64,000 nucleotides of DNA, from NCBI GenBank assembly GCA_944383315.1, contig CALWPB010000003.1, forward strand, positions 294 through 64,293. Direction: 5' to 3'. Position 1 is the stretch's first letter. Each line of letters opens with the position of its first letter. The position numbers were made by a program, and so were the translations under genes. Positions 6,316 to 62,758 of this stretch are shown here, in pieces. Below the pieces are notes generated by a model, which saw only the letters and a list, made by a program, of their open reading frames with translations, searched no databases and was not told the origin of the DNA. This stretch comes from an uncultured Clostridia bacterium. GTDB taxonomy: Bacteria > Bacillota > Clostridia > Christensenellales > UBA1242.

Positions 6316-6900
6316 ATGCAAGCAAATAAAAAAGCGTCTGTTACAAAATTTTTGAAGAAATACGGATATTGGATAGGTTTGGCATTCAGTATCGCGATAC
6401 TTATCACGGTGATTACCGTTGCCGCAGTGGCTAGACCAGTTACTCCTGATGACGATTTTACACCTGTGGACACGCCAACAATCAGTTTTACAAACCCTGT
6501 TACTGAAATGACTACTTTAAAGACCTACTCAAATACTGCATTGCAGTACAACAGCACCCTTAAACTTTGGCAAGCACACAAGGCAGTTGACTTCGCTGCT
6601 GACGAAGGTACCGAAGTTTATGCTGTTATGGATGGAAAAGTAACCGAAGTAACTTACAACTACCTTATGGGCAACATTGTTAAACTTGACGTAGGTGGCG
6701 GCATCACTGTTGTTTATGCTTCTCTTGCAAGCGATGTACCTGTAAAGGTAGGCGATGAAGTAACAAAGGGTAGTGTAATAGGTAAAGTAAGTAACACAGC
6801 AAAGTCTGAATCAAATGACGGTCCACACTTGCATCTTGAAGTATTGCTTGATGGCGAACTTGTAGACCCTGCATTGTATCTTGACCTTGCAGAAAAATAA
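6316..6900 (+). CDS. M23 family metallopeptidase with N-terminal TM segment (LytM domain; SpoIIQ-like architecture)
   Basis: HKAVD (HxxxD) and HLHLE (HxH) motifs. Internal ATG at 6316 preceded by GAGGAGG. Confidence 0.85.
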   Translation: MQANKKASVTKFLKKYGYWIGLAFSIAILITVITVAAVARPVTPDDDFTPVDTPTISFTNPVTEMTTLKTYSNTALQYNSTLKLWQAHKAVDFAADEGTEVYAVMDGKVTEVTYNYLMGNIVKLDVGGGITVVYASLASDVPVKVGDEVTKGSVIGKVSNTAKSESNDGPHLHLEVLLDGELVDPALYLDLAEK

Positions 6901-6921
6901 AAAAGCACAGATGTGCTTTTT
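6899..6921. terminator. Bidirectional intrinsic terminator hairpin (AAAAAGCAC-AGAT-GTGCTTTTT)
   Basis: GC core stem flanked by an A-run and a T-run, immediately after the M23 stop. An identical hairpin at 7123-7144 follows acpP. Confidence 0.7.
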
Positions 6922-6992
6922 ATTTTTTCTCTGCAACTTTCTTTTCAACATAGTCAACTAATTTACCAATAGTATCAAGATTTTTAGCGTCT
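6899..6992. repeat. Direct repeat copy 1: terminator hairpin plus orphan 3' fragment of acpP (last 23 codons and stop, minus strand)
   Basis: Aligns to 7123-7215 with a single T-run length difference (T5 versus T4). Confidence 0.9.
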
Positions 6993-7122
6993 ATGAAACA
7001 CGACAGCGAGTTAGAAATCACTACACTACAACAAACCACTCTTGTTGTAACACTATCAAAGATACAACGAACACTACACGCTGGCAGTACCCGCTAAAAA
7101 TCTTATCAAATAGGCATAACGA

Positions 7123-7215
7123 AAAAAAGCACAGATGTGCTTTTATTTTTTCTCTGCAACTTTCTTTTCAACATAGTCAACTAATTTACCAATAGTATCA
7201 AGATTTTTAGCGTCT
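7123..7215. repeat. Direct repeat copy 2 (terminator plus the 3' end of the intact acpP)
   Basis: See 6899-6992. Confidence 0.9.
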
Positions 7216-8222: not shown

Positions 8223-8628
8223 GGAACACTTTGTCGCAGGGCCTTTTGCTGAATTTATGTGTCGTAAGTTTGGCGGAGAAACGGACGGGTTCAACGCGCG
8301 CATTTTGTTTCGTATAGTGTTTACTGTGCTAGGAATGTCTTTTATAATGACGTGGCTCGGGCTTATTTATGGCGAACTTGTTAGCACTGGCACAGTTACA
8401 ACACAAGTCTTTACTGACTTTTTACTTGCGTGGCCGCGTAACTTTTTCTTGGCATTTTGGATAGAAATACTAATTGCTCAACCTATTGCTAGAAAAGTAA
8501 TGAAAACAGTCCACGCACGCAAACAACGTAGCGAGATTATAGAGTTTACACCCGATATGGCAATGCAGAAAAATTATCTTGTAGACGAAAACGAAATAAA
8601 GCGCAACCAAAATCAGCGCAAAAAATAG
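8221..8628 (+). CDS. DUF2798-like membrane protein, probably 5'-truncated or decayed
   Basis: Hydrophobic repeat ...AWPRNFFLAFWIEILIAQPIARKV.... The only start is a TTG inside the terminator T-run, with no SD. The in-frame upstream region ends in a stop at 8152-8154 with no ATG. Confidence 0.4.
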   Translation: MEHFVAGPFAEFMCRKFGGETDGFNARILFRIVFTVLGMSFIMTWLGLIYGELVSTGTVTTQVFTDFLLAWPRNFFLAFWIEILIAQPIARKVMKTVHARKQRSEIIEFTPDMAMQKNYLVDENEIKRNQNQRKK

Positions 8629-8697
8629 CCATTTTACTTTGTAAAACGGCTTTTTTTGTGTATAATAGTTTTAGTTTTCAAAAAAAGGAGCGACAAA

Positions 8698-9630
8698 ATG
8701 CAAGAATACGATGTGATTATAGTAGGTGGGGGGCCATCAGGAATGACCGCAGGAATTTATGCAGCGCGCGCAGGCGCAAAAGTACTTTTGATTGAAAAAG
8801 CAGGAGTAGGCGGGCAAGTGGCAATTACTAGCAATATTGCAAATTACCCAGGATTTAAAAGCATAGACGGTTTTGAACTCAGCCAAAATATGTTTGAGCA
8901 AATGACGGCTCTCGGTGTGGATACGGAATTTGCAACAGTTGATAGCCTAGATTTAAACGGGGAGTTAAAGCAGGTTACTGCAAACGGAGTAACATATCAG
9001 GCTCCCGCAATCATATTAAGTATGGGTGCATATTCAAGGGGCTTGGGTGTGGCAAACGAGCGTCAGTTTGTTGGTCGTGGTTTGAGTTATTGCGCGGTAT
9101 GTGATGGCGCATTTTTTAAGGGGAAGACGGTAGCCGTTGTCGGCGGTGGTAATACAGCCTTAGGTGATGTGCTTTATCTTGCGCCTATTGTAAGTAAGTT
9201 GTATCTAATTCACCGCAGACAAGGTTTTAGAGCCGACCAAACGGTGATAAATGACTTTGAAAAGTTGCGTTCGCAGCCAAATAGCAATATAGAGACTAGA
9301 CTTGATTGCGTAGTTGAGAATGTCGAAGGCGAAAATCGACTTGAACGCGTGATTTTGCGCAATGTTGTATCGAATGAAACGGAAGTTCTCGACGTTGACG
9401 GAGTTTTCGTAGCAATAGGCAGAAACCCAAATACTGAAATGTTGGACGGTGCTATCACACTTGATGGTGGTTATATCAAGGTGAATAGTAAAATGGAAAC
9501 TAACATAGCAGGAGTTTATGCCGCAGGTGATATAACAGCAAAAGAACTACGCCAGATTGCAACAGCCATTTCTGACGGTGCGATTGCTGGCACCAATGCC
9601 GCCTTGTATGCAAAAAAATCAAGGGGTTAA
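8698..9630 (+). CDS. trxB: Thioredoxin-disulfide reductase
   Basis: GGGPSG FAD motif, CAVCDG redox centre, AAGGAG SD before ATG 8698. Confidence 0.93.
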   Translation: MQEYDVIIVGGGPSGMTAGIYAARAGAKVLLIEKAGVGGQVAITSNIANYPGFKSIDGFELSQNMFEQMTALGVDTEFATVDSLDLNGELKQVTANGVTYQAPAIILSMGAYSRGLGVANERQFVGRGLSYCAVCDGAFFKGKTVAVVGGGNTALGDVLYLAPIVSKLYLIHRRQGFRADQTVINDFEKLRSQPNSNIETRLDCVVENVEGENRLERVILRNVVSNETEVLDVDGVFVAIGRNPNTEMLDGAITLDGGYIKVNSKMETNIAGVYAAGDITAKELRQIATAISDGAIAGTNAALYAKKSRG

Positions 9631-9633
9631 TAT

Positions 9634-10968
9634 ATGGGAAATTTGTTTGGTACAGACGGAATACGTGGAATAGCAAATGAGAAAATAACAGCCGAAACAG
9701 CACTAAATTTAGGCAAAGCATTTGCGATTAATTTATCCAAAAATGCTTGCTTTCGGCGAGTTATAGTTGGTTGTGATACTAGGACGTCAGGGCAAATGCT
9801 CGTATCCGCTTTTGTTGCGGGGCTAAATAGTCAAGGCTTTTCGGCAGTCTTACCAAACATTTTGCCAACTCCAGCATTGAGTTATCTTACACGCAGTCTA
9901 GACGTGGATGGCGGGATAATGATAACAGCCAGTCATAATGCGCCCGAATTTAACGGAATTAAGTTTTATGACAAGGACGGCAACAAATTAGAGAAAGTAG
10001 AACAAGACAATATTGAAAAAATTTATTTTGAAATAGATAGTTATCTTGGCTGCGAACCTATGGAAATAGGCAGCAATGAAGAAAATGAAGATTTAACTAA
10101 ACTTTGGGTCGACCACTTAATAGATACGCTCAAAGTACCTAGCCTTAATGGCTTGAAAATTGCACTTGATTGCGCAAATGGCGCCGCTTTTGCAGTCGCT
10201 CCGTACGTGTTTAAGTCGTTAGGGGCTGTCGTTACTTCGTACAACAATTTTGATAACGGCGCAAAAATCAATGTTGATTGCGGAAGCACTCACATAGACG
10301 GTTTTATTGCTGAATGTGTGTCAAATGGTGTCGACTGGGGGTTCAGTTTTGACGGTGATGCGGATAGAGTACTAGTAGTTTCGTCTACTGGAGAATTGCT
10401 TGACGGAACGGATATTTTGTACATTTTTGCTAAATATTTAAAAGATAAAGGCGAACTCCCGCACGATACAGTAGTATCAACTATTATTACAAATTGTGGG
10501 TTAGAGCACAGTTTAGAAAAATTAGGCATAAAAATGGTTAGCACACAGGTGGGCGGGCTCTTTATTCAACGAGAAATGCTCGCGCACGGCTACTGTTTGG
10601 GCGGGGAAGAAAACGGACATATAATGTATGACACGATTTCACCCGAATCTTGCGGAATTACCGCCGCATTAATGCTCCTAAAAATTGTTAGCGAATGTGG
10701 AAATGTTGAAAAATTACTCGCAGGGCTTGAACGCACAAAAGTTGTCAATGCAGATATTCCAGTAAGCGAACGCCAAAAGGTGAAAGTGGCAAGCGGCGCG
10801 CTAGATGATTATGTCAACGAATTTGAAAATGCACTAGGCTCAAAAGGGCGTATAGTTGTGCGCCCGAGCGGTACAGAAAGCGTAATTAGAGTGTTAGTTG
10901 AAGGCGATGACATACAATTACTAAATAATATTTGTGAAAAGTTAGTTGACCGCGTCAACACAATTTAA
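9634..10968 (+). CDS. glmM: Phosphoglucosamine mutase
   Basis: GTDGIRG and TASHNAPEFNGIK motifs, 444 aa. Confidence 0.92.
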   Translation: MGNLFGTDGIRGIANEKITAETALNLGKAFAINLSKNACFRRVIVGCDTRTSGQMLVSAFVAGLNSQGFSAVLPNILPTPALSYLTRSLDVDGGIMITASHNAPEFNGIKFYDKDGNKLEKVEQDNIEKIYFEIDSYLGCEPMEIGSNEENEDLTKLWVDHLIDTLKVPSLNGLKIALDCANGAAFAVAPYVFKSLGAVVTSYNNFDNGAKINVDCGSTHIDGFIAECVSNGVDWGFSFDGDADRVLVVSSTGELLDGTDILYIFAKYLKDKGELPHDTVVSTIITNCGLEHSLEKLGIKMVSTQVGGLFIQREMLAHGYCLGGEENGHIMYDTISPESCGITAALMLLKIVSECGNVEKLLAGLERTKVVNADIPVSERQKVKVASGALDDYVNEFENALGSKGRIVVRPSGTESVIRVLVEGDDIQLLNNICEKLVDRVNTI

Positions 10969-10970
10969 CA

Positions 10971-10998
10971 AAAAGCATAGCACTCGCTATGCTTTTTT
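10971..10998 (+). terminator. Intrinsic terminator after glmM
   Basis: GCATAGC-ACTC-GCTATGC followed by T6. Confidence 0.75.
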
Positions 10999-11081
10999 GA
11001 ATTTTTTTTGTCTTTTAAATATTTTTTTTGGGCAAAAAATGTAAAAATGTGCAAATTTATTTTACTAATTTTCATAAAAAA

Positions 11082-11090
11082 TGTTAAAAT
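11082..11090 (+). promoter_or_regulatory. Extended -10 element TGTTAAAAT of surface-protein paralog 1
   Basis: The same 9-mer occurs at the equivalent position (28942-28950) upstream of paralog 2. Confidence 0.4.
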
Positions 11091-11123
11091 AACTATATAC
11101 TAAATAAAAGGAGAAGAAAACAA

Positions 11124-11231
11124 ATGCCTTATATAAGGACTAAAAGTCTATCTAGTGTGCGGAGAGAAGAAAGAGAGAAACAACAGAATACCCGCTCTAA
11201 AATAGCGAAGGGGGTGGTATTATGCAGTTAA
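11124..11231 (+). CDS. Upstream leader ORF (35 aa) overlapping the start of paralog 1
   Basis: My translation is MPYIRTKSLSSVRREEREKQQNTRSKIAKGVVLCS. AGGAG SD lies 10 nt upstream. The stop at 11229-11231 overlaps the main ATG at 11222. Confidence 0.3.
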   Translation: MPYIRTKSLSSVRREEREKQQNTRSKIAKGVVLCS

Positions 11232-13421
11232 GTGCAAAAGCAAGGCTAATAAGTATCATAGTAGCGGTTGTGTTTATGTTTGGTGCACTCGCAGGCACAG
11301 GTACATACCTAATCATTAACCACATAAACAAATCAAACGCCACAACGGAAACAACCTTAAGTATTAGCGGCAACTTATACAACACAGACGGCTCACTCAA
11401 TGCAAGCGCAGTATCTCAATTTGTAGACAAACTAGACTTTATTTTAGACGGAGCAGAGTATAAGAGCCCTACCATAGCAGACAATGCAGGCGTAACGGCA
11501 ACAAACAGTTTTATCTTTAATATGGGCTATTATGTAGACCCACAAGGTACAATGCACACAAACAAGCCAATCACTTGGCAAGCAGTATACGCTCGCAATG
11601 GTTATTTAACAATATGGATGATAAAAAATTACACTACAAGTGATTATAATGATAAAGGTTACGACGTAACGCCGGGCAGTCCATTTACTGATACAACAGA
11701 GTATACAAAAGGACCGTATGAGTCTAGGCACAATTATTCACAATCAGTATTAAGAGATGTAACAAATCGAATCTATGATTTGATAGTATTGGATGATAAA
11801 TTAGACAAATTTGATACAATAATAGTCACACCAACACAAGCAAATATGGGTACTAATTGGCAAACTACGCAAGACAATGCAGGTTGGTCTGTTATGAATG
11901 GGTTGGGTTCTAATACAGGGACAACAAATCCCCATAGCTTATCCTATTCTAGTTGTATGAGTGATAAATTTTGGATACCTAGTTATTATGAAGCATTTGG
12001 AAAAGATACAGGGACAAGTAACTATACATTTAATGGTGGCTTATGGGGCTTGACTGATACTGATGTTAAATTTAGCACGGTGCGATTAGATACTAATACA
12101 ACCACTACTGATGGTAGTGATAGTGGTGCGGGTGATAGTAGGTATTGCTGGCTGCGCTCCAGCTCTTTGTAGTCGGCTGGTCTGCTCGGGGGTTCTCCTC
12201 GGGCGCGTTTTTTTTCTTCTCGGGTTTTCGTGCGCGGGCGGCGTCCGTCCTGCCGCTCATCTCTCTTTAGAATCGCTAGCCAACGCAGTTGGCTATACTA
12301 TCTCCGCGAGCTTGGCGAGCGGCTCCGCGCACGAGAGTGCGCAGGTAAATAACTCTTCCGCTTGGAGCGGTAAATATACCAACGGGCAAGGTGATTTAAA
12401 TATAACATACACATCTAACTCAAATTATTATATCTCTTCAATCACGCTCAACGGAACAAGCGTAACTATCAACACAAGCGCGCCCACAGGATATGCAACA
12501 TTATCAAACGTCTGCCAATACAAAGTTTGGCGTAATAATGCTAATACGGTAACGGTTACCTTAAATAATTGTACCGCAGCGGTGAACGTCGTGGGGGACG
12601 TTGGCAATACCCTAAGGTTGAGTAATGAAGGGGGAGCAAATGTATCTAGCCTAAGTTATTCCCGCGCCACATACGACACAACCACCGCCACAATAACAGG
12701 AGCGGTAGCGAGCGGATACACTCCACAGTTACGGTACGGGGCGAGTGAATACGCCACCTTATACAACACAAGCGGTAGCGGAACACTCGGTGGCATAAAC
12801 TATAGTTACACAAAAACAGGTACAACCAACTTTTCAATAACAATTACGGGGATATCAACGGGAATTACCAACATTCCCACAGTATACATAAACGCAATAA
12901 ACCAAGTACAAATAACATTTAATACAACAGGCGGAGACGGTACAGTATCACTAAAAACAGGGAACTTCACAATAGGTAACCAAATCACCGTATACGCAGC
13001 ACCAGCCCAAAACAACGCCTTTTTGTATTGGATAGACTCCACAGACCCTAGCAATATAATCACCACAAATCCGCTTGTTGCCACAGTACAACAAGCCAAA
13101 ACATACACCGCAGTATTCTCAAACAGTCTGCTAGACGGGGTTGCGGTTGGTGCAACGGCTGGCGGTGAAGTACGTATGGTTGGCTTTAACGCGGATACAA
13201 TCACCGATACGGATACAGTTACCCTAATTGCAGTGTGTTATACAGGGTATGAATTTGCAGGCTGGTACATTAATGGCGAATTGCTCTCGGGTTACGGAGA
13301 GAGCGCCCGCGTGCAATATAGCGAAATAAAAGATAAAATGATAACCGCTGTATTCACACCAATAAACCAAAACAGCACAAATGACGAAACAGATAACAAC
13401 TATACAGACGACTTTGTGTAA
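11222..13421 (+). pseudogene. Surface protein paralog 1 (N-terminal TM anchor, DUF6273-like domain, InlB B-type repeats), disrupted by a frameshift plus TAG at 12161-12172
   Basis: Two overlapping ORFs (11222-12172 and 12111-13421) together align along their full length with the intact paralog at 29195-31123. The W-L-R-S motif is in frame 1 and G-V-R-P-A is in frame 2. The loop is 79 nt here versus 81 nt in the paralog. Confidence 0.65.
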
Positions 13422-13748
13422 ATTTTTAGATATAAAGTATTATCTACGTCGTCGCGAGCCAATAAATCGCGCGGTTATGTATTAGTATATACACGCCCTT
13501 GCGATTTTTGGCATGCTCCTAGTATCTAACACCTTATATCTAAAAATAGGAAATTCACTCTTTTGTGCATATAGGCACTGCGGACTGTTTTTGCGTAAAA
13601 CCACCACGCAAAAAGCGCTACTTTCCGCATTTTTCCCGATATGCAAGTATATCGATTGTATAAAAACAGAGTACAAAACAAGTGCTCTGTTTTTTTGTAT
13701 TTAAAATTCCCACAGTATAAATTATAAACTGTTGCAAAATATAAAGTT

Positions 13749-15398
13749 ATGAAGTATCAATCTTTTATGGGCGGAGTTGCCGTTTTGTTTGCAGGCGGAG
13801 CGATTGCCAAAATTTTGGGCGCTGTGTACCGTATTCCGCTTACGTGGATATTGGGAGCCGAAGGCTTGGGAATTTATCAACTTGTATTTCCCGTGTTTTC
13901 GCTACTGATAGTGCTGGCTAGTAGTGGTATGCCGACTTCAATTAGTAAAATGACAGCCACAAGGCTTGCGCACCACGACTATGCGGGAGTGCGTACGGTG
14001 TTCCGCGTCAGTATAATCACAATGTTAATAGTTGGGGTAGTGGTAAGTGCGCTTGTGTTGGGGCTTGCGTCAGTGATTGCAAACGTTCAAGGTAACGCGC
14101 TTGGCACTCTTGGATATGTGGGCATTGCTCCCGCCATTCTTTTTGTGTGTTTGCTTAGTGTGTTTAGGGGGTATTTCCAAGGGCATAGCAATATGATACC
14201 AACAGCCCTTAGCCAAATTGTAGAGCAAGCGGGGAAACTGATTTTTGGGTTACTGTTTGCTTATTTATTGGTTGGCTACGGCATAGAATATGGCGCATTT
14301 GGGGCAATACTCGGGGTTACTTTGAGTGAAATAATCGCTGTAACGGTGTTATATGTTATTTATTTAAAAAATAGACAACCAGCACCGAACTATTCGCAAA
14401 ACGGGTTGCAGAGTACATTGCATAGTACCGTTACCGCGGGGGCGCAGAGCGCACAAGCACAAGGAGTTAATCACAAAACACAAGACAAGAATAGTTTTAA
14501 GTCCACGTTTAGCGAACTCATACGTACAAGTACTCCAATAGTGCTTTCAAGCGTAACTTTGCCGCTCCTTGTTATGTTAGATAGTTTTTTTGTCGTCAAC
14601 TTATTAAATCAAGCGGGGTTTGATTCGACCACTGCCACGATTTTGTGGGGTATAGATAGTGGGGCAGTAAATAGTTTAATTAATATGCCTATTGCACTTT
14701 GCTTGGCGGTTGCTGTGTCCGTTGTCCCTGCGATTGCAGCGCTAAACGATAAGGCAGAAATAAATGTGAAAATCAACAAAGCATTGGCACTAACCTTTGT
14801 CTTTTGTCTGCCTGTGATTGCTGTGTTCTTGGTGCTGCCCGAAATACTTACTGATATTCTTTATCAAGGAAGCCTTGGGGGTGCGGAATTTTTGCATATA
14901 GCCAGCAATCTGTTGCTTCTAGGCACTCCCACAATTTTAGCAGGTTCGGTATTGCAGGTGCAAAATAGCGCATTGCAAGCCCTAGGCAAAGGGAATATTA
15001 CAATGTACAATATGCTTTTTGCAGGAGTTATCAAAATAGGACTAACCCTGCTACTCGTACCTATGGCTAGCATTAATATTTATGGAATTGCTCTTTCAAG
15101 CCTTGCATTCTATATAGTTGCCGTTGTGTTGAATGCTATATATTTAAGGAAAAAATTAAGTTTTAGATTTAGTATAAAGCCCGTTTTACCGAGCATAGCA
15201 GGAGCGAGCCTATTGCTGCTATTTTTTGCAAACGTAGTTGTTTTACCAATATCGCATATTTTGATTGCTGTTCTTGCGGTATCGGTGGGGATAGTATTGT
15301 ACCTGTTTACTCTTTGGGTGTTTGGGTTTAATTTTACAGAAATTTTTCCATTTTTGAAACGAAAAAGTGTTAAAAAAGTTGATTTAGGCAATACTTAG
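13749..15398 (+). CDS. MOP-superfamily flippase (MurJ/SpoVB-like polysaccharide biosynthesis protein)
   Basis: 549 aa, polytopic, N-terminal GAIAKILGAVYRIPLTWILGAEGLGIYQ typical of the family. Confidence 0.8.
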   Translation: MKYQSFMGGVAVLFAGGAIAKILGAVYRIPLTWILGAEGLGIYQLVFPVFSLLIVLASSGMPTSISKMTATRLAHHDYAGVRTVFRVSIITMLIVGVVVSALVLGLASVIANVQGNALGTLGYVGIAPAILFVCLLSVFRGYFQGHSNMIPTALSQIVEQAGKLIFGLLFAYLLVGYGIEYGAFGAILGVTLSEIIAVTVLYVIYLKNRQPAPNYSQNGLQSTLHSTVTAGAQSAQAQGVNHKTQDKNSFKSTFSELIRTSTPIVLSSVTLPLLVMLDSFFVVNLLNQAGFDSTTATILWGIDSGAVNSLINMPIALCLAVAVSVVPAIAALNDKAEINVKINKALALTFVFCLPVIAVFLVLPEILTDILYQGSLGGAEFLHIASNLLLLGTPTILAGSVLQVQNSALQALGKGNITMYNMLFAGVIKIGLTLLLVPMASINIYGIALSSLAFYIVAVVLNAIYLRKKLSFRFSIKPVLPSIAGASLLLLFFANVVVLPISHILIAVLAVSVGIVLYLFTLWVFGFNFTEIFPFLKRKSVKKVDLGNT

Positions 15399-15411
15399 AG
15401 CGGGGTGTAAG

Positions 15412-15696
15412 ATGAACAAATCAGATTTAGTCAAAAGTATTTCGCAAGAATGTATGATTCCAATCAAAACAACGCAAAAAGTACTCGATAGTATGCTAAA
15501 TTTAATCACCGAAGCATTGCTACGTGGGGAAGTGGTTAGCCTGTCTAATTTTGGAAAATTCTTCGCAAAATACTCTCGCGGGGCTGTAAAAAGTGTGCCA
15601 AGTACGGCATTGCGCGTGTCCGTTCCGCCCAAATTTGTACCAAAATTTAGCGCTTTTAGGGCATTGAAACGCCGTTTTTTGCTAAATTTTGGCTAA
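15412..15696 (+). CDS. Divergent HU/IHF-like DNA-binding protein
   Basis: MNKSDLVKSIS...TTQKVLDSMLNLITEALLRGEVVSLSNFGKF matches the HU N-terminal fold. The beta-arm is not canonical. Confidence 0.6.
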   Translation: MNKSDLVKSISQECMIPIKTTQKVLDSMLNLITEALLRGEVVSLSNFGKFFAKYSRGAVKSVPSTALRVSVPPKFVPKFSAFRALKRRFLLNFG

Positions 15697-15805
15697 AATT
15701 GGGCATTTTAAGGCCAAATTTGCCAAAAAATCGCGTAAATCGTTTGGAGAAGAGCCCAAAATATGATATACTGCTTTTAACATTACAAAAAGGAGAATTT
15801 AAGTA

Positions 15806-28982: not shown

Positions 28983-29198
28983 ATGTATAGTTACACACTT
29001 GCCCCGCCCCCTTCAAACTGTCTGGGGGGGGGGGACTTTTTAGCCTATAAAAAACTTGTTTCAAGTTTTTTCTCCCCACATACAAAACATACCAAAACAC
29101 AAAATAACAGTATAAATACTCAGCCGATTTCCCAAACCGGCTTTTTTGCGTTAATTCAAAATTACGAGCAGAATGCTCGTTTGGGGGTGATATTATGA
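28983..29198 (+). CDS. Upstream leader ORF (71 aa) traversing the C-run/G11 hairpin and ending in ATGA overlap with paralog 2
   Basis: ORF track. AAGGGG SD 9 nt upstream. The stop TGA shares bases with the main ATG at 29195. Confidence 0.3.
   Translation: MYSYTLAPPPSNCLGGGDFLAYKKLVSSFFSPHTKHTKTQNNSINTQPISQTGFFALIQNYEQNARLGVIL
29024..29034 (+). repeat. G11 homopolymer tract
   Basis: Counted directly. Complementary to C4GC5 at 29002-29011, and followed by ACTTTTT. Confidence 0.95.
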
Positions 29199-31123
29199 GA
29201 GTTACCCCAAAAGCAAGATTAATAAGTATCATAGTCGCCTTAGTTTTTATGGCAAGCGCCATAATCGGCAGCGGTACATACCTAATTATTAACCATTTAA
29301 ACAACGCAAATGCTACTACTTCCACAAGTTACATAATACAAGACAACTTGTATAATACTGATGGAACGTTAAACAATCAAGCAGTATATGATTTTTTAGA
29401 CGCAATAGGTTATATTGACAATCCAAATGACACAAACACATACAAAGCAAATCAAATACTATCACGCAATAATAGTAGTAGTTATGCAGGTGATAAAACT
29501 ATTGTATTTAAAATGGGGTATTATGTAAGCCCTAGTGGTGCGATGGATACGGACAAGCCTATTGTATGGCAAGCGACATATTTACGTAACGGTTACCTAA
29601 CAATATGGATGGCAAACAGTTATACAAGCGATTATTTCAACAATGGTACAAGTTCGTATAGCGATTGGAAAACAAGTTCAACAAGTTATTCTCAAACAGG
29701 TAACTATTCAAACTCACTGATACGAGAAGTAACAAATAATATATACGGTGCTTTAAATACGAGTTTGAATAGTTTAAGTAGTTTTATTGTATCTCCGTAT
29801 GAAGCAAGTGCAACGTGGCAAGCAACACAAGCAAATGCTTTTTACGATAATACGAGTTACTGGTCTATAACAAACGGTATGGAAACAAACTCTAATAGTG
29901 GAAGTGCAAGTTATCAAGACAAAAATGATTGTAATCCATATAGTTGGAGTTGGGATGATACCGTGTACAAAGATAAGTTTTGGTTACCTAGCCACGTAGA
30001 AATATTCAATACGCCAGAACAAAGTAGTGCGTACGATGACCGTGGTTTATGGGGGATAACATCCGCTAATGATAGGAAGGATACAAGTAGTTCTGCATTA
30101 GACGGTAAAAGTACAAGACAATGTTGCTGGCTGCGCTCCGGCGACTCTTACAAGAGCCTCGCTGCGATGCAAGTTTTCTCCTCGGGCTCCGCTCTTAACT
30201 CCTATGTGTACATTTCCTACGGCGTCCGTCCTGCCGCTCACATCTCTTTATCCTCGCTAGCCGATTTAGTGTCTTACACTATCACGGCTCAATCAAACAA
30301 TGCAAGTTATGGTACTATGTCGGGTGGTGGAATCGTTGTAAAAAATTCGTCTGTTACACTTCGTGCCACACCAAATTCAAATTATCAATTTTTACGTTGG
30401 GAATGTAATGGCGTTACTGTATCCACCGAAACAGAAATAACTTTCACTGCTACTCAAAGTGCTACATACATAGCGATTTTTGAATATGTACCTATTACTC
30501 TAAACATCACAGGTAATTCGGGCAGTTACACGAGTACGATTGATTATAATTCTAAAACGCAAAATGCAACCATTGTTATATATCCTGCTGTAAATGATTA
30601 TATCAACACAATTTGGCTAGACTCAAACTCCCCGCAAATAGTGGACCGCTGGAACGATTACGTTTATCAGGATAGTGCGGCTTTTCAAGTTTCGTATAAG
30701 GTATCTGATTTTAGCAATACAATTGTAGTTAATATTGAATTGCTAAAAGGCGACATTACTATAAATATAAATCTTGCACATACACCACCGACACTACAAC
30801 AAGGCGGGGGCACAAATATTAGCGGGGTTGCGTTGCAGGTGAGTGCTAGCGGGGGCAGTACTGACCTAGCGGCAGTGGGCGAAGCCCGAATCACAGGGTA
30901 CAACCAAACAGAAGATTTATCAACAATACACGTAAGTGCGATGGCGTCTACGGGGTATGCTTTTGTAGGGTGGGAAGTTGACGGTGAAATAATCTCAACA
31001 CTACTTTCTACCGATATTCCTTATGAAGACGTAGAAGGCAAAATCATTGTAGCCGTATTCGAGCCTATCAATACAAACTCAAATAGTGTAACAGACAACA
31101 ATCAAACTAATGATTTTATATAA
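29195..31123 (+). CDS. Surface protein paralog 2 (N-terminal TM anchor, DUF6273-like domain with W-L-R-S...G-V-R-P-A, InlB B-type repeats)
   Basis: 642 aa intact ORF with a GGGGG SD. KARLISIIVALVFM anchor, FWLPS...CCWLRS...GVRPAAHISL, and C-terminal GYAFVGWEVDGE repeats. Confidence 0.85.
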   Translation: MRVTPKARLISIIVALVFMASAIIGSGTYLIINHLNNANATTSTSYIIQDNLYNTDGTLNNQAVYDFLDAIGYIDNPNDTNTYKANQILSRNNSSSYAGDKTIVFKMGYYVSPSGAMDTDKPIVWQATYLRNGYLTIWMANSYTSDYFNNGTSSYSDWKTSSTSYSQTGNYSNSLIREVTNNIYGALNTSLNSLSSFIVSPYEASATWQATQANAFYDNTSYWSITNGMETNSNSGSASYQDKNDCNPYSWSWDDTVYKDKFWLPSHVEIFNTPEQSSAYDDRGLWGITSANDRKDTSSSALDGKSTRQCCWLRSGDSYKSLAAMQVFSSGSALNSYVYISYGVRPAAHISLSSLADLVSYTITAQSNNASYGTMSGGGIVVKNSSVTLRATPNSNYQFLRWECNGVTVSTETEITFTATQSATYIAIFEYVPITLNITGNSGSYTSTIDYNSKTQNATIVIYPAVNDYINTIWLDSNSPQIVDRWNDYVYQDSAAFQVSYKVSDFSNTIVVNIELLKGDITININLAHTPPTLQQGGGTNISGVALQVSASGGSTDLAAVGEARITGYNQTEDLSTIHVSAMASTGYAFVGWEVDGEIISTLLSTDIPYEDVEGKIIVAVFEPINTNSNSVTDNNQTNDFI

Positions 31124-31349
31124 ACACTAATGATTTTATATAAACACTAATGATTGTACATAAACAAATACTAATGATATTATAAAAAACACGAATAATT
31201 TAAAATAAACAAATACAACTAATTTTATAAACAAATACTAATGGGCATATGTGAACAAACACAAATAATGTTAAATAAACAAACAAAAAATAATTGTATA
31301 AACAACTACAAATAATGTTACAAAAATAAACACAAATAATATTAAATAA
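31124..31349 (+). repeat. About ten degenerate tandem copies (20-28 nt) of the last codons plus stop of the preceding gene
   Basis: Units ACACTAATGATTTTATATAA, ACACTAATGATTGTACATAA, ACAAATACTAATGATATTATAAAAA and so on. Each starts ACA and ends TAA or TGA. The gene itself ends ...ACTAATGATTTTATATAA. Confidence 0.8.
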
Positions 31350-31604
31350 ACAAAATTTGAGTATTAGCAAATATTAGAAATTTAATTTAAAAACCTTGAA
31401 AATCTCTGCATTATTTAGTAAATGTACTAAAAAAGTACGGTTGATTTGCCTACTAGAAATGGGAAACCAACACAAAAAATTAATAAAATATGTGCATTTG
31501 CAAAAATATTTAGTATGCAACCATCATACAAATAACGCTATTTTGCAAATTTTGCGATATGATGGTCTATCGTTTACACAAAAACAGAGCACAATGTTAA
31601 GTTA

Positions 31605-37082: not shown

Positions 37083-37476
37083 GGGAGCGCACCGGCTTTG
37101 ACAGGTGATGGCTTACTCCGTTTTGCATACCGCCGGCTCGTCGGCGTCATCAACGGAAATTAAATTTAAATGCTGAAACTAAATCAGTTAAGGCTATGCC
37201 TACCGTTAACTACGGTGTAGCAGCATACGCCTAATCGTCTAAACATTTTAGACAGTCTGTAATGGGGGCTTTGGCAAGTAACCGCTATTAACAGGCTTCA
37301 ACCCAAACTTGCTACGCCCGAGTATCGTTCGCTGGCTCGGAGTTAAAAATAGCGAAATCGTCAGTATTATGTTTGTTTGTTTACGTAGTAATGATTAAAT
37401 ATTAAACAAACTAAGTATGTAGAGAATGGAATTAAGGCGCATCTGGACGTGGGTTCGATTCCCATCGCTTCCACCA
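37083..37476 (+). ncRNA. ssrA: tmRNA (transfer-messenger RNA)
   Basis: The 5' GGGAGCG pairs with the 3' CGCTTCC-ACCA, including G3:U. GGCTTTGACAGG follows the 5' end. T-arm GGGTTCGATTCCC. Internal tag frame 37172-37234. Located immediately after smpB. Confidence 0.9.
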
Positions 37477-60532: not shown

Positions 60533-62758
60533 ATGGAGAAACACAAGCTAGCAATGTTTGATGATGGTATTTTAAAGCCACACAATCAGCAAGTTTATCA
60601 GAAAATTTTAGATGGGTTACTCGATTCAAACAAAGTTTTAGTAGAGCAAGCAACTGGTACGGGTAAATCTTTCCTTGCAATGAAATATATCCACGATTTC
60701 GCGCTAAATAACGGTAAAAAGGTGCTGTTTGTGGCGCCAACGAAAGTAATAGAAGATGCTTTTTTGGATAACTGCGAGGGTGTTTTGGGATATGGGAAAA
60801 ATAGGAATTTTAATGTAGACCTGACCACTTCGCTTTATGCGGGGTTAAAGAACGAAGTAAACAATCATTACGACATCATTATCTTAGACGAAGTACACAG
60901 AGCAGGTGCTGAAGTGTGGGGACAGAGTGTAGAGCAGTTGTTGGCAAACAATTCAAATGCTACTGTTTTAGGTCTTACTGCCACGCTAGACCGTATGGAC
61001 GGTATCGATATAAGACAATATTTTGATAATCGCGAACCCGTTTCGCGCATTTCGCTAGTTAATGCAATTCAATCGGGTATTTTACCTGTTCCAGACTATA
61101 CATTAGCAAAGGTTGATTTTAGCGATGACAAGCAGTTTATTGAGCAAGCCGAGCAAGATTTGATGGATAAACTACATCACGCTACTCGTAATGAAAAGGC
61201 ATATATTACCAAGTATTTAGCCGATTTGAGTGAAGCAAAAAAGATTATTGCCGAAAGTAAGGAATTGCCATACATTTTTGGGAAAGAATTGAATACTCCA
61301 GCATTGAGAAAGGGGAAATATATCGTATTCTGTATTGGTGGGCAAGACGACAACGGAGACAAGTTGCGTATGGAGCAAATGGCTACGCAGGCGCATTACT
61401 GGTTTAGAAATGTTGAAGGCAATCCAAGCATTAAAACTTATGCTGTACATAGTACTTATGGTAGCGAATACAATGCAGAACAAATTGAAGAATTTGAAAA
61501 TGATGATTCAAATAGTATCAAACTATTGTTTTCTGTAAATATGCTAAATGAAGGGAAACACGTAGAAGACATAGACGGTGTGATTATGTTTAGACCTACG
61601 GCATCAAAAGTAATATATTTACAGCAGTTAGGAAGAGCCTTGTCTGTAGGGCACAATGAACACCCCAAAATCTTTGACTTTGTAGCAAATCTCGATATGG
61701 AACGAGTTGATGAGATAAAAAGAACATTAACTCCTACACAAGAAACAGAGCATACAAAACAAGACGGAGACGAAGTACAGGGTGATAGAGACAAGGGTAA
61801 ACCTGTATTTAATATAAATATCAAAAATTTAACCGCTCTTGAGTTTATCAACTCTTTAAAAAGAAATATTTATGAATTTAATGAGACTTTTGATTTTGAT
61901 TTGCTCATAAGTAAATTGAACGAGTACAAAGCAGAAAACGGTGATTTGTTGGTACCATACAATTACGAAACAGAGGATAATTACTCATTAGGAAGAAGAG
62001 TAATTGAATTGAGAAGTACTTATAGAAATGGCAAACTTTCACAGGACCGAATTGATGAGTTAAGCAAAATAGGCTTTGTATGGAGTGCTAAAGACGAAGC
62101 TTTTGAAGAGGGGTTTGCTAGATTGAAAGAATATCAAGCAGAAAATGGCGATTTGCTAGTGCCAGCGGACTATGAAACAGAAGATCAGTATCCGTTAGGA
62201 CAAAAAGTAAATAATATAAGACAATCATTTAGGAAAGGTAAACTTTCCCAAGACAAGATAGACCGTCTAAACGAAATAGGCTTTATATGGAATACTAAAG
62301 ACGAAGCTTTTGAAGAGTTTTGTGCTAGACTAGAAGAATATAAACAAAAAAGTGGTGATTTGTTAGTACCATTAAACTATGAAACAGAAGATCAGTATCC
62401 GTTGGGACAAAAAGTATCTTATATAAGGCAATCATATAGCAGGGGCTATCTTTCCTCGGATAAGAAGAATCGTCTAAATGCAATAGGTTTTGTATGGAAT
62501 ACTAGGGGCAATGTCAAGGGTGAAACTTTTGAAGAGACTTGTACTAGATTAGAAAAATATAAACAAGAAAATGGTGATTTGGTTGTACCAAGGAACTATG
62601 AAACAGAAGATCAGTATCCGTTAGGGTTAAAAGTACATAGTATAAGAGTCGCATATAAGAATGGCAGACTTTCCTCAGACAAAATAGACTATCTAAACGA
62701 GATGGGTTTTGTTTGGGATGCGAGCAAAAAGAAAAAAGATGATCCACAAATGCAGTAA
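60533..62758 (+). CDS. SF2 helicase (ResIII/DEAH-type) with four C-terminal helicase-associated (HA) domains
   Basis: ATGTGKS, DEVH, TATLDR and QQLGRALS motifs, then 4 copies of ...ENGDLLVP.NYETED.YPLG.KV..IR......L..D.I..L..IGF.W. Confidence 0.85.
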   Translation: MEKHKLAMFDDGILKPHNQQVYQKILDGLLDSNKVLVEQATGTGKSFLAMKYIHDFALNNGKKVLFVAPTKVIEDAFLDNCEGVLGYGKNRNFNVDLTTSLYAGLKNEVNNHYDIIILDEVHRAGAEVWGQSVEQLLANNSNATVLGLTATLDRMDGIDIRQYFDNREPVSRISLVNAIQSGILPVPDYTLAKVDFSDDKQFIEQAEQDLMDKLHHATRNEKAYITKYLADLSEAKKIIAESKELPYIFGKELNTPALRKGKYIVFCIGGQDDNGDKLRMEQMATQAHYWFRNVEGNPSIKTYAVHSTYGSEYNAEQIEEFENDDSNSIKLLFSVNMLNEGKHVEDIDGVIMFRPTASKVIYLQQLGRALSVGHNEHPKIFDFVANLDMERVDEIKRTLTPTQETEHTKQDGDEVQGDRDKGKPVFNINIKNLTALEFINSLKRNIYEFNETFDFDLLISKLNEYKAENGDLLVPYNYETEDNYSLGRRVIELRSTYRNGKLSQDRIDELSKIGFVWSAKDEAFEEGFARLKEYQAENGDLLVPADYETEDQYPLGQKVNNIRQSFRKGKLSQDKIDRLNEIGFIWNTKDEAFEEFCARLEEYKQKSGDLLVPLNYETEDQYPLGQKVSYIRQSYSRGYLSSDKKNRLNAIGFVWNTRGNVKGETFEETCTRLEKYKQENGDLVVPRNYETEDQYPLGLKVHSIRVAYKNGRLSSDKIDYLNEMGFVWDASKKKKDDPQMQ
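61889..62719 (+). repeat. Four tandem coding repeats of about 207-219 bp (HA domains)
   Basis: Repeat units of 69-73 aa counted in the translation. Long nucleotide-level matches occur between units, for example GACGAAGCTTTTGAAGAG at two unit boundaries. Confidence 0.85.

Follow-up and report, generated by a model that had tools for sequence, protein, structure and literature searches.

A conserved, almost adenine-free cassette in the variable-region slot of a surface-protein gene family of uncultured Clostridia

Why does a surface-protein gene carry an 87-nucleotide (nt) tract without a single adenine, in a stretch of DNA that is 32% A, and why does its reading frame end there? We address this question for a 64,000-nt stretch from an uncultured Clostridia bacterium (contig CALWPB010000003.1 of assembly GCA_944383315.1), hereafter the window, in which the tract lies in a gene that we call paralog 1 and an uninterrupted relative is found as paralog 2. 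Paralog 1 is one of a multi-copy set of surface proteins with a DUF6273 head, whose variable region (VR) sits between the motifs CWLRS and GVRPAAH. In paralog 1, a non-coding, almost A-free cassette (76-80 nt across its types) stands for the usual 81-nt loop. A first-pass annotation had read the tract as a product of targeted hypermutation by a process like that of diversity-generating retroelements (DGRs). We conclude that the flagged tract is, as far as sequence comparison can tell, a conserved stop/terminator cassette and not a mutated VR. Our best explanation, to which we give a probability of roughly 0.6, is that it represents a long-lived OFF cassette, spread by recombination within a contingency-type gene family and possibly overwritten by a DGR.

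A diversified surface-protein family and its slot

Most of what the first-pass annotation had recorded at this site was reproduced. The A-free run covers 12172-12258, only two A occur in 12145-12258, and the next longest A-free run of the window measures 36 nt; given the window's 32% A, the expected number of runs this long is ~5e-11. The 15-mer TGCTGGCTGCGCTCC occurs exactly at 12146 and, in paralog 2, at 30125, and the 20-mer GGCGTCCGTCCTGCCGCTCA at 12240 and 30221, with no third copy of either in the window when up to 3 mismatches were allowed. Between them, the loop is 79 nt long in paralog 1 vs. 81 nt in paralog 2. The TAG (12170-12172) that terminates a 316-amino-acid (aa) open reading frame (ORF; ...CWLRSSSL*), the T8 run at 12208-12215, and the hairpin GCGCAC-GAGA-GTGCGC at 12327-12342 were likewise recovered. 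The description of the loop as unalignable with paralog 2 was mostly correct but fails for a 12-nt core, TTCTCCTCGGGC (12192-12203, equal to 30176-30187). The in-frame TAG truncates the gene at the end of its N-terminal half; in this allele, the C-terminal half is also out of frame. The tract is not unique to paralog 1 and recurs in other paralogs, strains, and species.

Both paralogs have an N-terminal membrane anchor, a head of ~300 aa with weak similarity to DUF6273, and a C-terminal stalk of InlB-B-repeat/Ig-like type. Their N-halves share 42-50% aa identity, and the ratio of non-synonymous to synonymous divergence (dN/dS) between the N-half of paralog 1 and other N-halves is 0.2-0.3. The C-half of paralog 1 matches Pfam Flg_new_2 (E 3.6e-8), and paralog 2 scores 19.3 bits against DUF6273, under the cut-off of 23.5, while several homologues carry precomputed DUF6273 matches. 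An AlphaFold model of the head had a mean predicted local distance difference test (pLDDT) score of 66, falling below 50 in the VR loop, and a Foldseek search with it returned nothing significant; its top viral matches were DUF6273 proteins (E 0.12-0.7). In the consulted parts of two papers, DUF6273 is described as C-type-lectin-like (PMC10743442) and as a known DGR target domain in which the VR occupies the C-terminal end, ahead of Ig-like domains (PMC10743442, PMC11792537). The first-pass annotation had counted the mid-gene position of the site against a DGR, but a mid-gene VR is normal for DUF6273 targets in the part of PMC10743442 that we consulted.

The family proved to be widespread and diversified. 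A scan of species-representative genomes with an A-free 19-mer returned at least 60 stretches, and four uncultured Clostridia metagenome-assembled genomes (MAGs) held 11, 10, 5, and 1 copies among the matches listed; the gene family is multi-copy, with at least 10 paralogs per genome. In an alignment, normal loops were 81 nt long, and NNC/NNT codons varied between invariant, A-free scaffold positions. From this paralog alignment, we predicted a template repeat (TR) of the form CWLRS-GNSNNNNNAMQVNSSGSANNNNVNNSN-GVRPAA, and a protein search with the predicted peptide found one 77-aa ORF with 100% identity over the match, situated in a non-coding locus of MAG RGIG4549 (L067 10031-10144). A second, nearly identical TR lies on a 662-nt scaffold (L070), and the same project also yielded cassettes of the window type. 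A TR with exactly the predicted sequence thus exists in related genomes. The 19-mer scan had missed both TRs because TR/VR homology ends ...GCCGCT and the TRs read ...GCCGCTT, making the scan blind to TRs. Patterns for the TR, the family, and the cassette gave empty results or chance high-GC matches in Joint Genome Institute (JGI) metagenome and viral scans.

Comparing 23 VRs with the TR, we found differences at 14-23 of the 32 TR adenines (replaced by G 189 times, T 130 times, and C 68 times), whereas the other 82 bases showed 0-8 differences in close relatives and none at all in four VRs. The VR of paralog 2 differs at 18/32 adenines and 4/82 other bases. At the locus of paralog 1 itself, an intact allele from another strain (L069) differs at 16/32 adenines and 0/82 others. 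With TRs taken from related assemblies, TR/VR mismatches thus fall on TR adenines. Judged by these sequences, 12146-12258 is the VR slot of a DGR-diversified DUF6273 protein, the family of paralogs 1 and 2 appears to be a genuine DGR target, and the locus is assigned to the known class of DGR targets by its TR/VR signature and cis elements.

The resemblance to canonical targets such as mtd of Bordetella phage BPP-1 (PMC3240598) extends to several details: a slot of ~115 nt homologous to the TR, VR/TR differences only at TR adenines, AAC/AAT codons at variable positions within an A-free scaffold, and a GC-rich homology end beyond which TR and VR diverge, followed by a hairpin whose stem is GC-rich and whose 4-nt loop has the form GRNA (G, purine, any base, A). 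Here, homology stops at 12257. The TR ends ...GGCGTCCGTCCTGCCGCT and continues TCACTCCC, and VRs run from ...GCCGCT into CA(T/CA)CTC (CACATCTC or CATCTCTC), so that the site resembles an initiation of mutagenic homing (IMH) end with its IMH* counterpart in the TR. The GC-rich 16-mer that had been proposed as the IMH can be set aside, as it lies 45 nt beyond the end of TR homology. Three differences from mtd-type targets also stand out. In paralog 1, the slot is filled by an invariant stop/terminator cassette unrelated to the TR-derived loop that it replaces; the TR stands alone, no reverse transcriptase (RT) having been seen next to it; and the hairpin deviates in size and placement.

This hairpin (12327-12342) is real: both partners change in three of its six pairs, 90.7% of the cells in the alignment are paired, and 0 of 500 shuffles reached its covariation score. 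The loop is GAGA here and GATA in relatives, which fits the GRNA consensus. By contrast, its 6-bp stem and its distance of 69 nt past the homology end fall outside the 7-10 bp and 4-34 bp published for DGR target hairpins (PMC3240598). The hairpin belongs to one subfamily of C-halves and is present in ON (intact) and OFF (interrupted) alleles alike. No GC hairpin follows the VR of paralog 2 (region 30125-30330). This VR, with its four non-adenine mismatches and no hairpin, may be an old one that the DGR no longer refreshes. A second C-half subfamily has a covarying 5-bp hairpin of its own in coding sequence ~59 nt past the end of TR homology (L002, L016, L017, L023, L025, L049, L058, and L046). 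It takes the forms CCCGA-AGGC-TCGGG, CCCGC-AGGT-GCGGG, and CCTGC-TGGC-GCAGG, with a loop that is not GRNA; compensatory changes affect two of its five pairs, and pairing holds in 97.8% of cells.

Between the slot and the first hairpin, the GC-rich 22-mer ATCTCCGCGAGCnTGGCGAGCG varies at one position only, synonymous sites included, in 9 genes of four lineages, ON and OFF. In the window, it consists of GC-rich codons in a 38% GC genome (12300-12321), and the mosaic junction of one family member (P0049) falls within it.

The TR itself forms a stand-alone non-coding unit (L067 9700-10540 on RGIG4549 contig JAFUJK010000014.1; L070 1-662). About 200 nt downstream of it are partly conserved between the two loci (GAGATGAAGGG...GGGTAAAAT.GGTCATTA), and in L067, a pair of GC-rich inverted-repeat elements (GGGCGGGCGCTT...AAGCGCCCGCCC) encloses the unit. 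Directly upstream of the variable part of the TR, ~48 nt (L067 10001-10048) have just 1-2 adenines in intergenic sequence that is otherwise A-rich. No Rfam family matched at the TR locus. MAG contigs often start or stop 40-300 nt from a VR (loci L002-L058); assemblies break at hypervariable VRs, and ON alleles are consequently under-represented as complete genes.

Anatomy and conservation of the cassette

Features of the two paralogs and of the cassette are collected in Table 1. In addition to its stop codon, the cassette contains a hairpin of 10 pairs (6 GC; 12183-12205) with the T8 run two bases after it, which together form the top terminator-like match within 11000-13800. The predicted hairpin energy is -13.7 to -14.8 kcal/mol in all cassette types, with a G-U to A-U change in the type found in BRZ, and the T-run begins two bases past the hairpin in every type (T7 in L074/L075, T8 in the window). 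A T9 version is predicted from the protein P0062. No Rfam family matched in 11900-12600.

The cassette recurs outside paralog 1. L066, a paralog recovered in another project, matches it at 78/79 positions, although the C-halves of L066 and paralog 1 align only partially (45-51% aa identity over two stretches, 32% in another comparison). The T7 version was recovered from independent assemblies that differ by 1 nt in 5170 (L074 and L075), and related types occur in L073, in RGIG4549 (RG45; L045), and in BRZ bin98 (L007, L009, and L029). The BRZ bin98 cassettes of L009 and L029 are identical over 79 nt, and that of L007, whose contig starts inside the cassette, agrees with them over the 39 nt present, while the sequence just upstream is unrelated between L009 and L029. 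Between lineages, the 5' 55 nt retain 85-100% identity despite saturated synonymous sites. The 3' third (~25 nt) is only 44-80% identical between types and contains indels, and it still holds 0-1 A per type. Whole cassettes measure 76, 78, 79, or 80 nt. The few adenines present are the same in all copies of a lineage (those of the TAG in all types; GAGG and T7-A-T4 in BRZ). Within MAGs, 3/11 family genes in BRZ bin98 and 1/10 in RGIG4549 are cassette alleles. Apart from cassette alleles themselves, nothing in the window or related loci matched as a source of the cassette.

Table 1. Coordinates of features at the two paralogs in the window, with the template repeat from related genomes
Feature	Position	Strand	Description
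N-terminal half of paralog 1	11222..12172	+	Signal-anchor and most of the DUF6273 lectin-like head; ends at TAG, ...YCWLRSSSL*
Block differing from ON allele of same locus	11413..12238	+	Compared with L069, 98%-identical strain
5' flank of VR slot	12146..12163	+	CWLRS plus GGC/AGC; matches TR 5' end, L067 10031-10048 = TGCTGGCTGCGCTCCGGC
A-free null cassette (putative)	12161..12239	+	79 nt replacing the 81-nt variable loop
In-frame TAG	12170..12172	+	Four codons after CWLRS; same position in all cassette types
Terminator-like element	12183..12215	+	9-10-bp hairpin 12183-12205, then T8 12208-12215
Core TTCTCCTCGGGC	12192..12203	+	Only part common to cassette and normal VR/TR; 3' arm of hairpin
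Cassette 3' third	12216..12239	+	Drifts freely between lineages, stays A-free
3' flank of VR slot	12240..12257	+	GVRPAA; identical to TR 3' end
C-terminal half of paralog 1	12240..13421	+	Ig-like/InlB B-repeat stalk; ORF intact, out of frame with N-half
GC-rich 22-mer ATCTCCGCGAGCTTGGCGAGCG	12300..12321	+	ISASLAS; outside TR homology, conserved at nucleotide level
GC hairpin	12327..12342	+	6 bp, GAGA loop; resembles DGR target hairpin
Paralog 2	29195..31123	+	Intact family member; normal VR at 30125-30238; Pfam DUF6273 (weak) and Flg_new_2
TR sequence			...AACAACAACAATGTGAACAATAGCAACGGCGTCCGTCCTGCCGCTTCACTCC

These results bear directly on the idea that the tract is a VR from which a DGR-like process removed the adenines. 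The tract does occupy a true VR slot, and its base counts (G 31, T 29, C 27) are like those of a TR in which each A has been exchanged according to the observed spectrum. However, tract and TR are not collinear: when TR adenines counted as wildcards, the tract scored -6 to 5 vs. 74-79 for real VRs, its match being limited to a 10-12-nt core (CTCCTCGGGC), so it is neither an A-exhausted copy of the TR nor a copy altered only at adenines. Real VRs retain about half of the 32 adenines, and homing restarts from the TR every time, so that no progressive loss of adenine would be expected. Moreover, the tract is invariant among copies and lineages, and orthologues in related genomes carry the same A-free sequence, an outcome that the first-pass annotation itself had named as contrary to its reading. 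We therefore find hypermutation of this tract scarcely credible. The A content of the cassette was neither inherited from the TR nor made by ongoing A-mutagenic copying. Derivation from the antisense strand of the TR or from TR-flanking sequence was rejected as well, since alignment scores were no better than those of shuffles. The same holds for a G-quadruplex, whose G-tracts are not conserved in the BRZ type, and for long-range pairing of the cassette 3' end (CGTGCGCGG) with 12325-12333, which occurs only in paralog 1 and not in L066 and is probably due to chance.

On the sense strand, base frequencies run T>G>C>>A, a strand-specific signal. A rival reading is that the DGR RT writes the cassette into slots from a second, A-free template, which would go unmutated for want of adenines and act as a programmed OFF-writing arm. 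Sense-strand adenine content matters to only one known process, DGR reverse transcription, and the invariant VR/TR scaffold is A-free for that reason. In addition, cassettes are identical within a lineage, A-avoidance holds even in the drifting 3' third, and the 19-mer scan was blind to copies of TR type, with their ...GCCGCTT ends. Still, none of 82 TR-like ORFs encodes the cassette, and the adenines that it does have never vary among copies, whereas about half should change per copying event. A second template is thus improbable in our estimation.

An interrupted gene could also be one that is expressed in pieces or recoded. The two halves might be separate proteins, the C-half being read from the +1 frame with an A-free hydrophobic leader, or they might be joined into one product by bypass, frameshifting, or read-through. 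Short GC-rich insertions are known within genes of AT-rich genomes, among them the T4 gene 60 gap, the mitochondrial "byp" elements, and the Rickettsia palindromic elements. Like these, the cassette is a short, structured, GC-rich segment within a gene of an AT-rich genome and has a stop at its start. A-free DNA is stop-free in every frame, so the C-half ORF always runs through the cassette; the T7 variant brings both halves into one frame; and in BRZ and RG45, by our own reading, a codon matching the pre-TAG codon stands in the landing frame. By contrast, the landing frame of the window type lacks a matching codon (TTG), the TAG of this type precedes the T-run, and TAG is an ordinary stop in this organism, used by tpi, murA, rnr, and tkt. 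Indels alter the encoded peptide between types, leaving no protein-level conservation, and the length of the cassette modulo 3 varies (76, 78, 79, and 80 nt). A terminator-like hairpin and T-run lie between the halves, no Shine-Dalgarno sequence precedes the candidate starts, and a head domain ending at the TAG would miss its last strands. Identity with a bypass element or palindromic insertion was ruled out because the cassette always occupies one slot, replaces sequence, varies in length, and in the window type lacks take-off and landing codons. Bypass, frameshifting, and read-through failed on the varying length, the missing codon, and the normal stop. Expression as two proteins or one recoded protein is, accordingly, very improbable.

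Interrupted and intact alleles of the same gene

If the cassette marks an OFF allele, near-identical strains might carry the same gene uninterrupted. Three such ON/OFF pairs were found. In the 98%-identical strain represented by L069 (ENA BRZ_D NODE_13450), the order trxB-glmM-(739-aa gene)-flippase identifies the locus of the window, with the gene intact; L069 matches window positions 8234-11412 and 12239-15758 at 98.1%, with no match in between. A second pair consists of L066 (split) and L068 (738 aa), which have the arrangement lysS-serS-(gene)-recN-spoIVB-spo0A in common at 97-98.8% identity and differ only by a block that ends exactly at the 3' end of the cassette. In the third, L074/L075 (split) and P0052/P0054 (681-682 aa) share 98.2% identity in the N-half and 95-98% in the C-half, and because both halves are alike, the difference is confined to the slot. 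Fused and split members are also regularly mixed in clusters of 90% identity. Mosaicism in the family is strong: two types meet within the ISASLAS motif of P0049, and L065 combines the promoter region and C-half of paralog 1 with another N-half type. In the window/L069 and L066/L068 pairs, recombination ran between the conserved 5' leader and the 3' flank homogenized by the DGR.

The interrupted genes show no sign of decay. OFF and ON C-halves have dN/dS values of 0.12-0.13 at dS 0.07-0.12, and an OFF/ON pair of N-halves gives 0.23. The C-half of paralog 1 is 97% identical in aa sequence to that of its ON allele in L069 (dN/dS 0.12) and 84% identical to that of L065, a more distant intact orthologue (dN/dS 0.12). 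Every C-half that we examined retains a full ORF of 390-470 codons, and neither half carries a further lesion in any of at least 8 interrupted genes. Purifying selection thus continues to act on the two halves. At the same time, the cassette is shared by several species-level lineages (at least four) and its functional part is conserved, which indicates that it is old; each OFF allele is, by these divergence estimates, young. Such a pattern is consistent with turnover, in which genes go off and later on again, and is a poor match to dead-end pseudogenes.

It is on this point that a non-adaptive account must be weighed, in which a one-off pseudogenizing lesion is passed on by gene conversion through flanks kept by the DGR and yields dead ends without switching. 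The cassette has spread faithfully, as gene conversion would give, and degenerate variants with deletions or altered T-runs exist (P0060, P0064, and L074). Where a genome has at least 10 paralogs, the loss of one is cheap, and two of the ON/OFF pairs differ by a recombined block. However, the stop, hairpin, and T-run within the 5' 55 nt are conserved across lineages whose synonymous divergence is saturated, and at least 8 interrupted genes lack a second lesion, with dN/dS of 0.12-0.23. A gene-killing lesion should not last in four lineages unless it is re-seeded constantly from intact-looking donors. For these reasons, we think that a purely non-adaptive null allele is unlikely.

We instead favor the explanation that the cassette allele would be the OFF allele of a contingency-type gene family. 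The cassette would pass from gene to gene, each interrupted gene being off only briefly, and its uniformity within a lineage would be kept by recombination or gene conversion between paralogs and strains. Spread by recombination seems preferable to spread by the A-mutagenic RT, as the adenines of the cassette are the same in every copy and real VRs change about half per event. A single DGR retrohoming event could then overwrite the cassette with a new in-frame 81-nt loop and turn the gene ON. Such overwriting is conceivable because the cassette retains 18 nt matching the TR 5' end and 18 nt matching the TR 3' end, along with the downstream hairpin, and homing from cassette to VR is what the pair L074/L075 vs. 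P0052/P0054 would require. Recombination with an ON copy would equally restore the gene.

Several observations weigh against this explanation, above all against its DGR component. The first-pass annotation had remarked that the window holds no RT, Avd, or TR; this holds, and no RT family matched the large ORFs of the window. No TR was recovered from the window's own genome, both TRs coming from relatives. Neither TR has an RT or Avd beside it, on contigs that stop 620 nt (L067) and 240 nt (L070) past the TR, and none was found in ~200 kb of related loci by a motif and phmmer search with an approximate Brt query. In the window/L069 and L066/L068 pairs, the N-half differs as well, which points to recombination of a ~0.8-kb block and not to DGR homing, and 18-nt flanks around ~80 nt of heterology may be a poor homing substrate. 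Among 22 N-half homologues, 16 end in ...CWLRSGS[LR]*, but this proportion of truncated forms is too high, as assemblies of ON alleles tend to break at the VR. Every comparator is a metagenome assembly or a MAG, and the presumed intrinsic terminator, a GC-rich hairpin directly followed by a U-run, was identified by pattern and folding. Finally, our explanation does not account for the adenine avoidance of the cassette, which persists even in the drifting 3' third. This could possibly reflect selection that keeps the spacer inert, because a sequence free of A offers no ATG, stop, TATAAT-like box, or GGAGG on either strand. Two other possibilities are that the cassette must not pair with the T-rich cDNA of the TR, so that only full replacement happens, or that rare passages through the DGR RT purged its adenines over long times.

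A bolder version would make the cassette a dedicated, A-free OFF module of a DGR-coupled phase switch, inert on both strands and mutator-proof, turned ON by DGR overwriting and OFF by gene conversion or an A-free template. We regard this version as doubtful, but if true, the retroelement would set both which of at least 10 lectin genes are expressed and what each of them binds.

Known systems and other features of the window

Contingency loci and gene-conversion antigenic variation include homopolymer-driven phase variation and systems of the pilE/pilS and vlsE type. These offer the closest functional analogy, sharing ON and OFF surface-protein alleles among near-identical strains, mosaics of paralogs joined at conserved junctions, and a homopolymer of variable length, although the present case is known from comparing alleles between strains and not from clonal switching. 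They differ in how a gene is OFF: here by a distinct, conserved cassette that brings its own stop and terminator-like element, not by a repeat frameshift; no change in the T-run by itself can restore an ORF that the TAG has already ended upstream.

Among DGRs, the nearest relatives by target are the DUF6273 proteins of gut phages and prophages ("tentaclins" and those of Faecalibacterium prophages), which, in the portions of PMC10743442 and PMC11792537 that we drew on, have the same head domain, the same VR position, and Ig-like domains after it. Those portions make no mention of a null cassette. By contrast, our family is chromosomal, with at least 10 genes per genome, in uncultured spore-forming Clostridia. 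By architecture, it recalls cyanobacterial DGRs with remote paralogous targets (PMC7517822), in which one TR serves many dispersed paralogs with cis elements near the VR, but that paper contains neither a conserved OFF cassette nor ON/OFF polymorphism. More generally, the DGR literature that we searched (open-access full text) contained no description of a VR slot occupied by a conserved null cassette, nor of targets that are polymorphic for ON and OFF.

DGRs are known for varying what a protein binds, and here, many slots hold a conserved silencing "blank." If a DGR can fill these blanks, hypervariation would be coupled to on/off control across a family of surface lectins, a bacterial analogue of choosing and rearranging receptor genes. 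In practice, surveys based on TR/VR pairs will miss slots that hold a cassette, and annotation will read such genes as pseudogenes or as two ORFs. The strict avoidance of adenine in a drifting stretch is, moreover, a strand-specific signal beside the only known adenine-specific mutator.

The window as a whole derives from the chromosome of a low-GC, spore-forming Firmicute and includes trxB, glmM, pgk, tpi, murA, rnr, nrdD, sleB, ypeB, and a transfer-messenger RNA (tmRNA) gene. The last of these (37083-37476; tag peptide AETKSVKAMPTVNYGVAAYA) was the only Rfam or ARAGORN match in the window. Directly past the stop of paralog 2, variants of the A-rich sequence AAACACAAATAATATTAAATAAAC are repeated in tandem every ~20-24 nt (31106-31355). 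An exact 75-nt direct duplicate (6918-6992 and 7141-7215, within 6899-7215) has the same small hairpin-like sequence, AAAAAAGCACAGATGTGCTTTT, before each copy. Lastly, a ResIII/DEAD helicase ORF at 60533-62758 ends in four tandem copies of ~207 nt (repeats 61889-62719) that encode helicase-associated (HA) domains.

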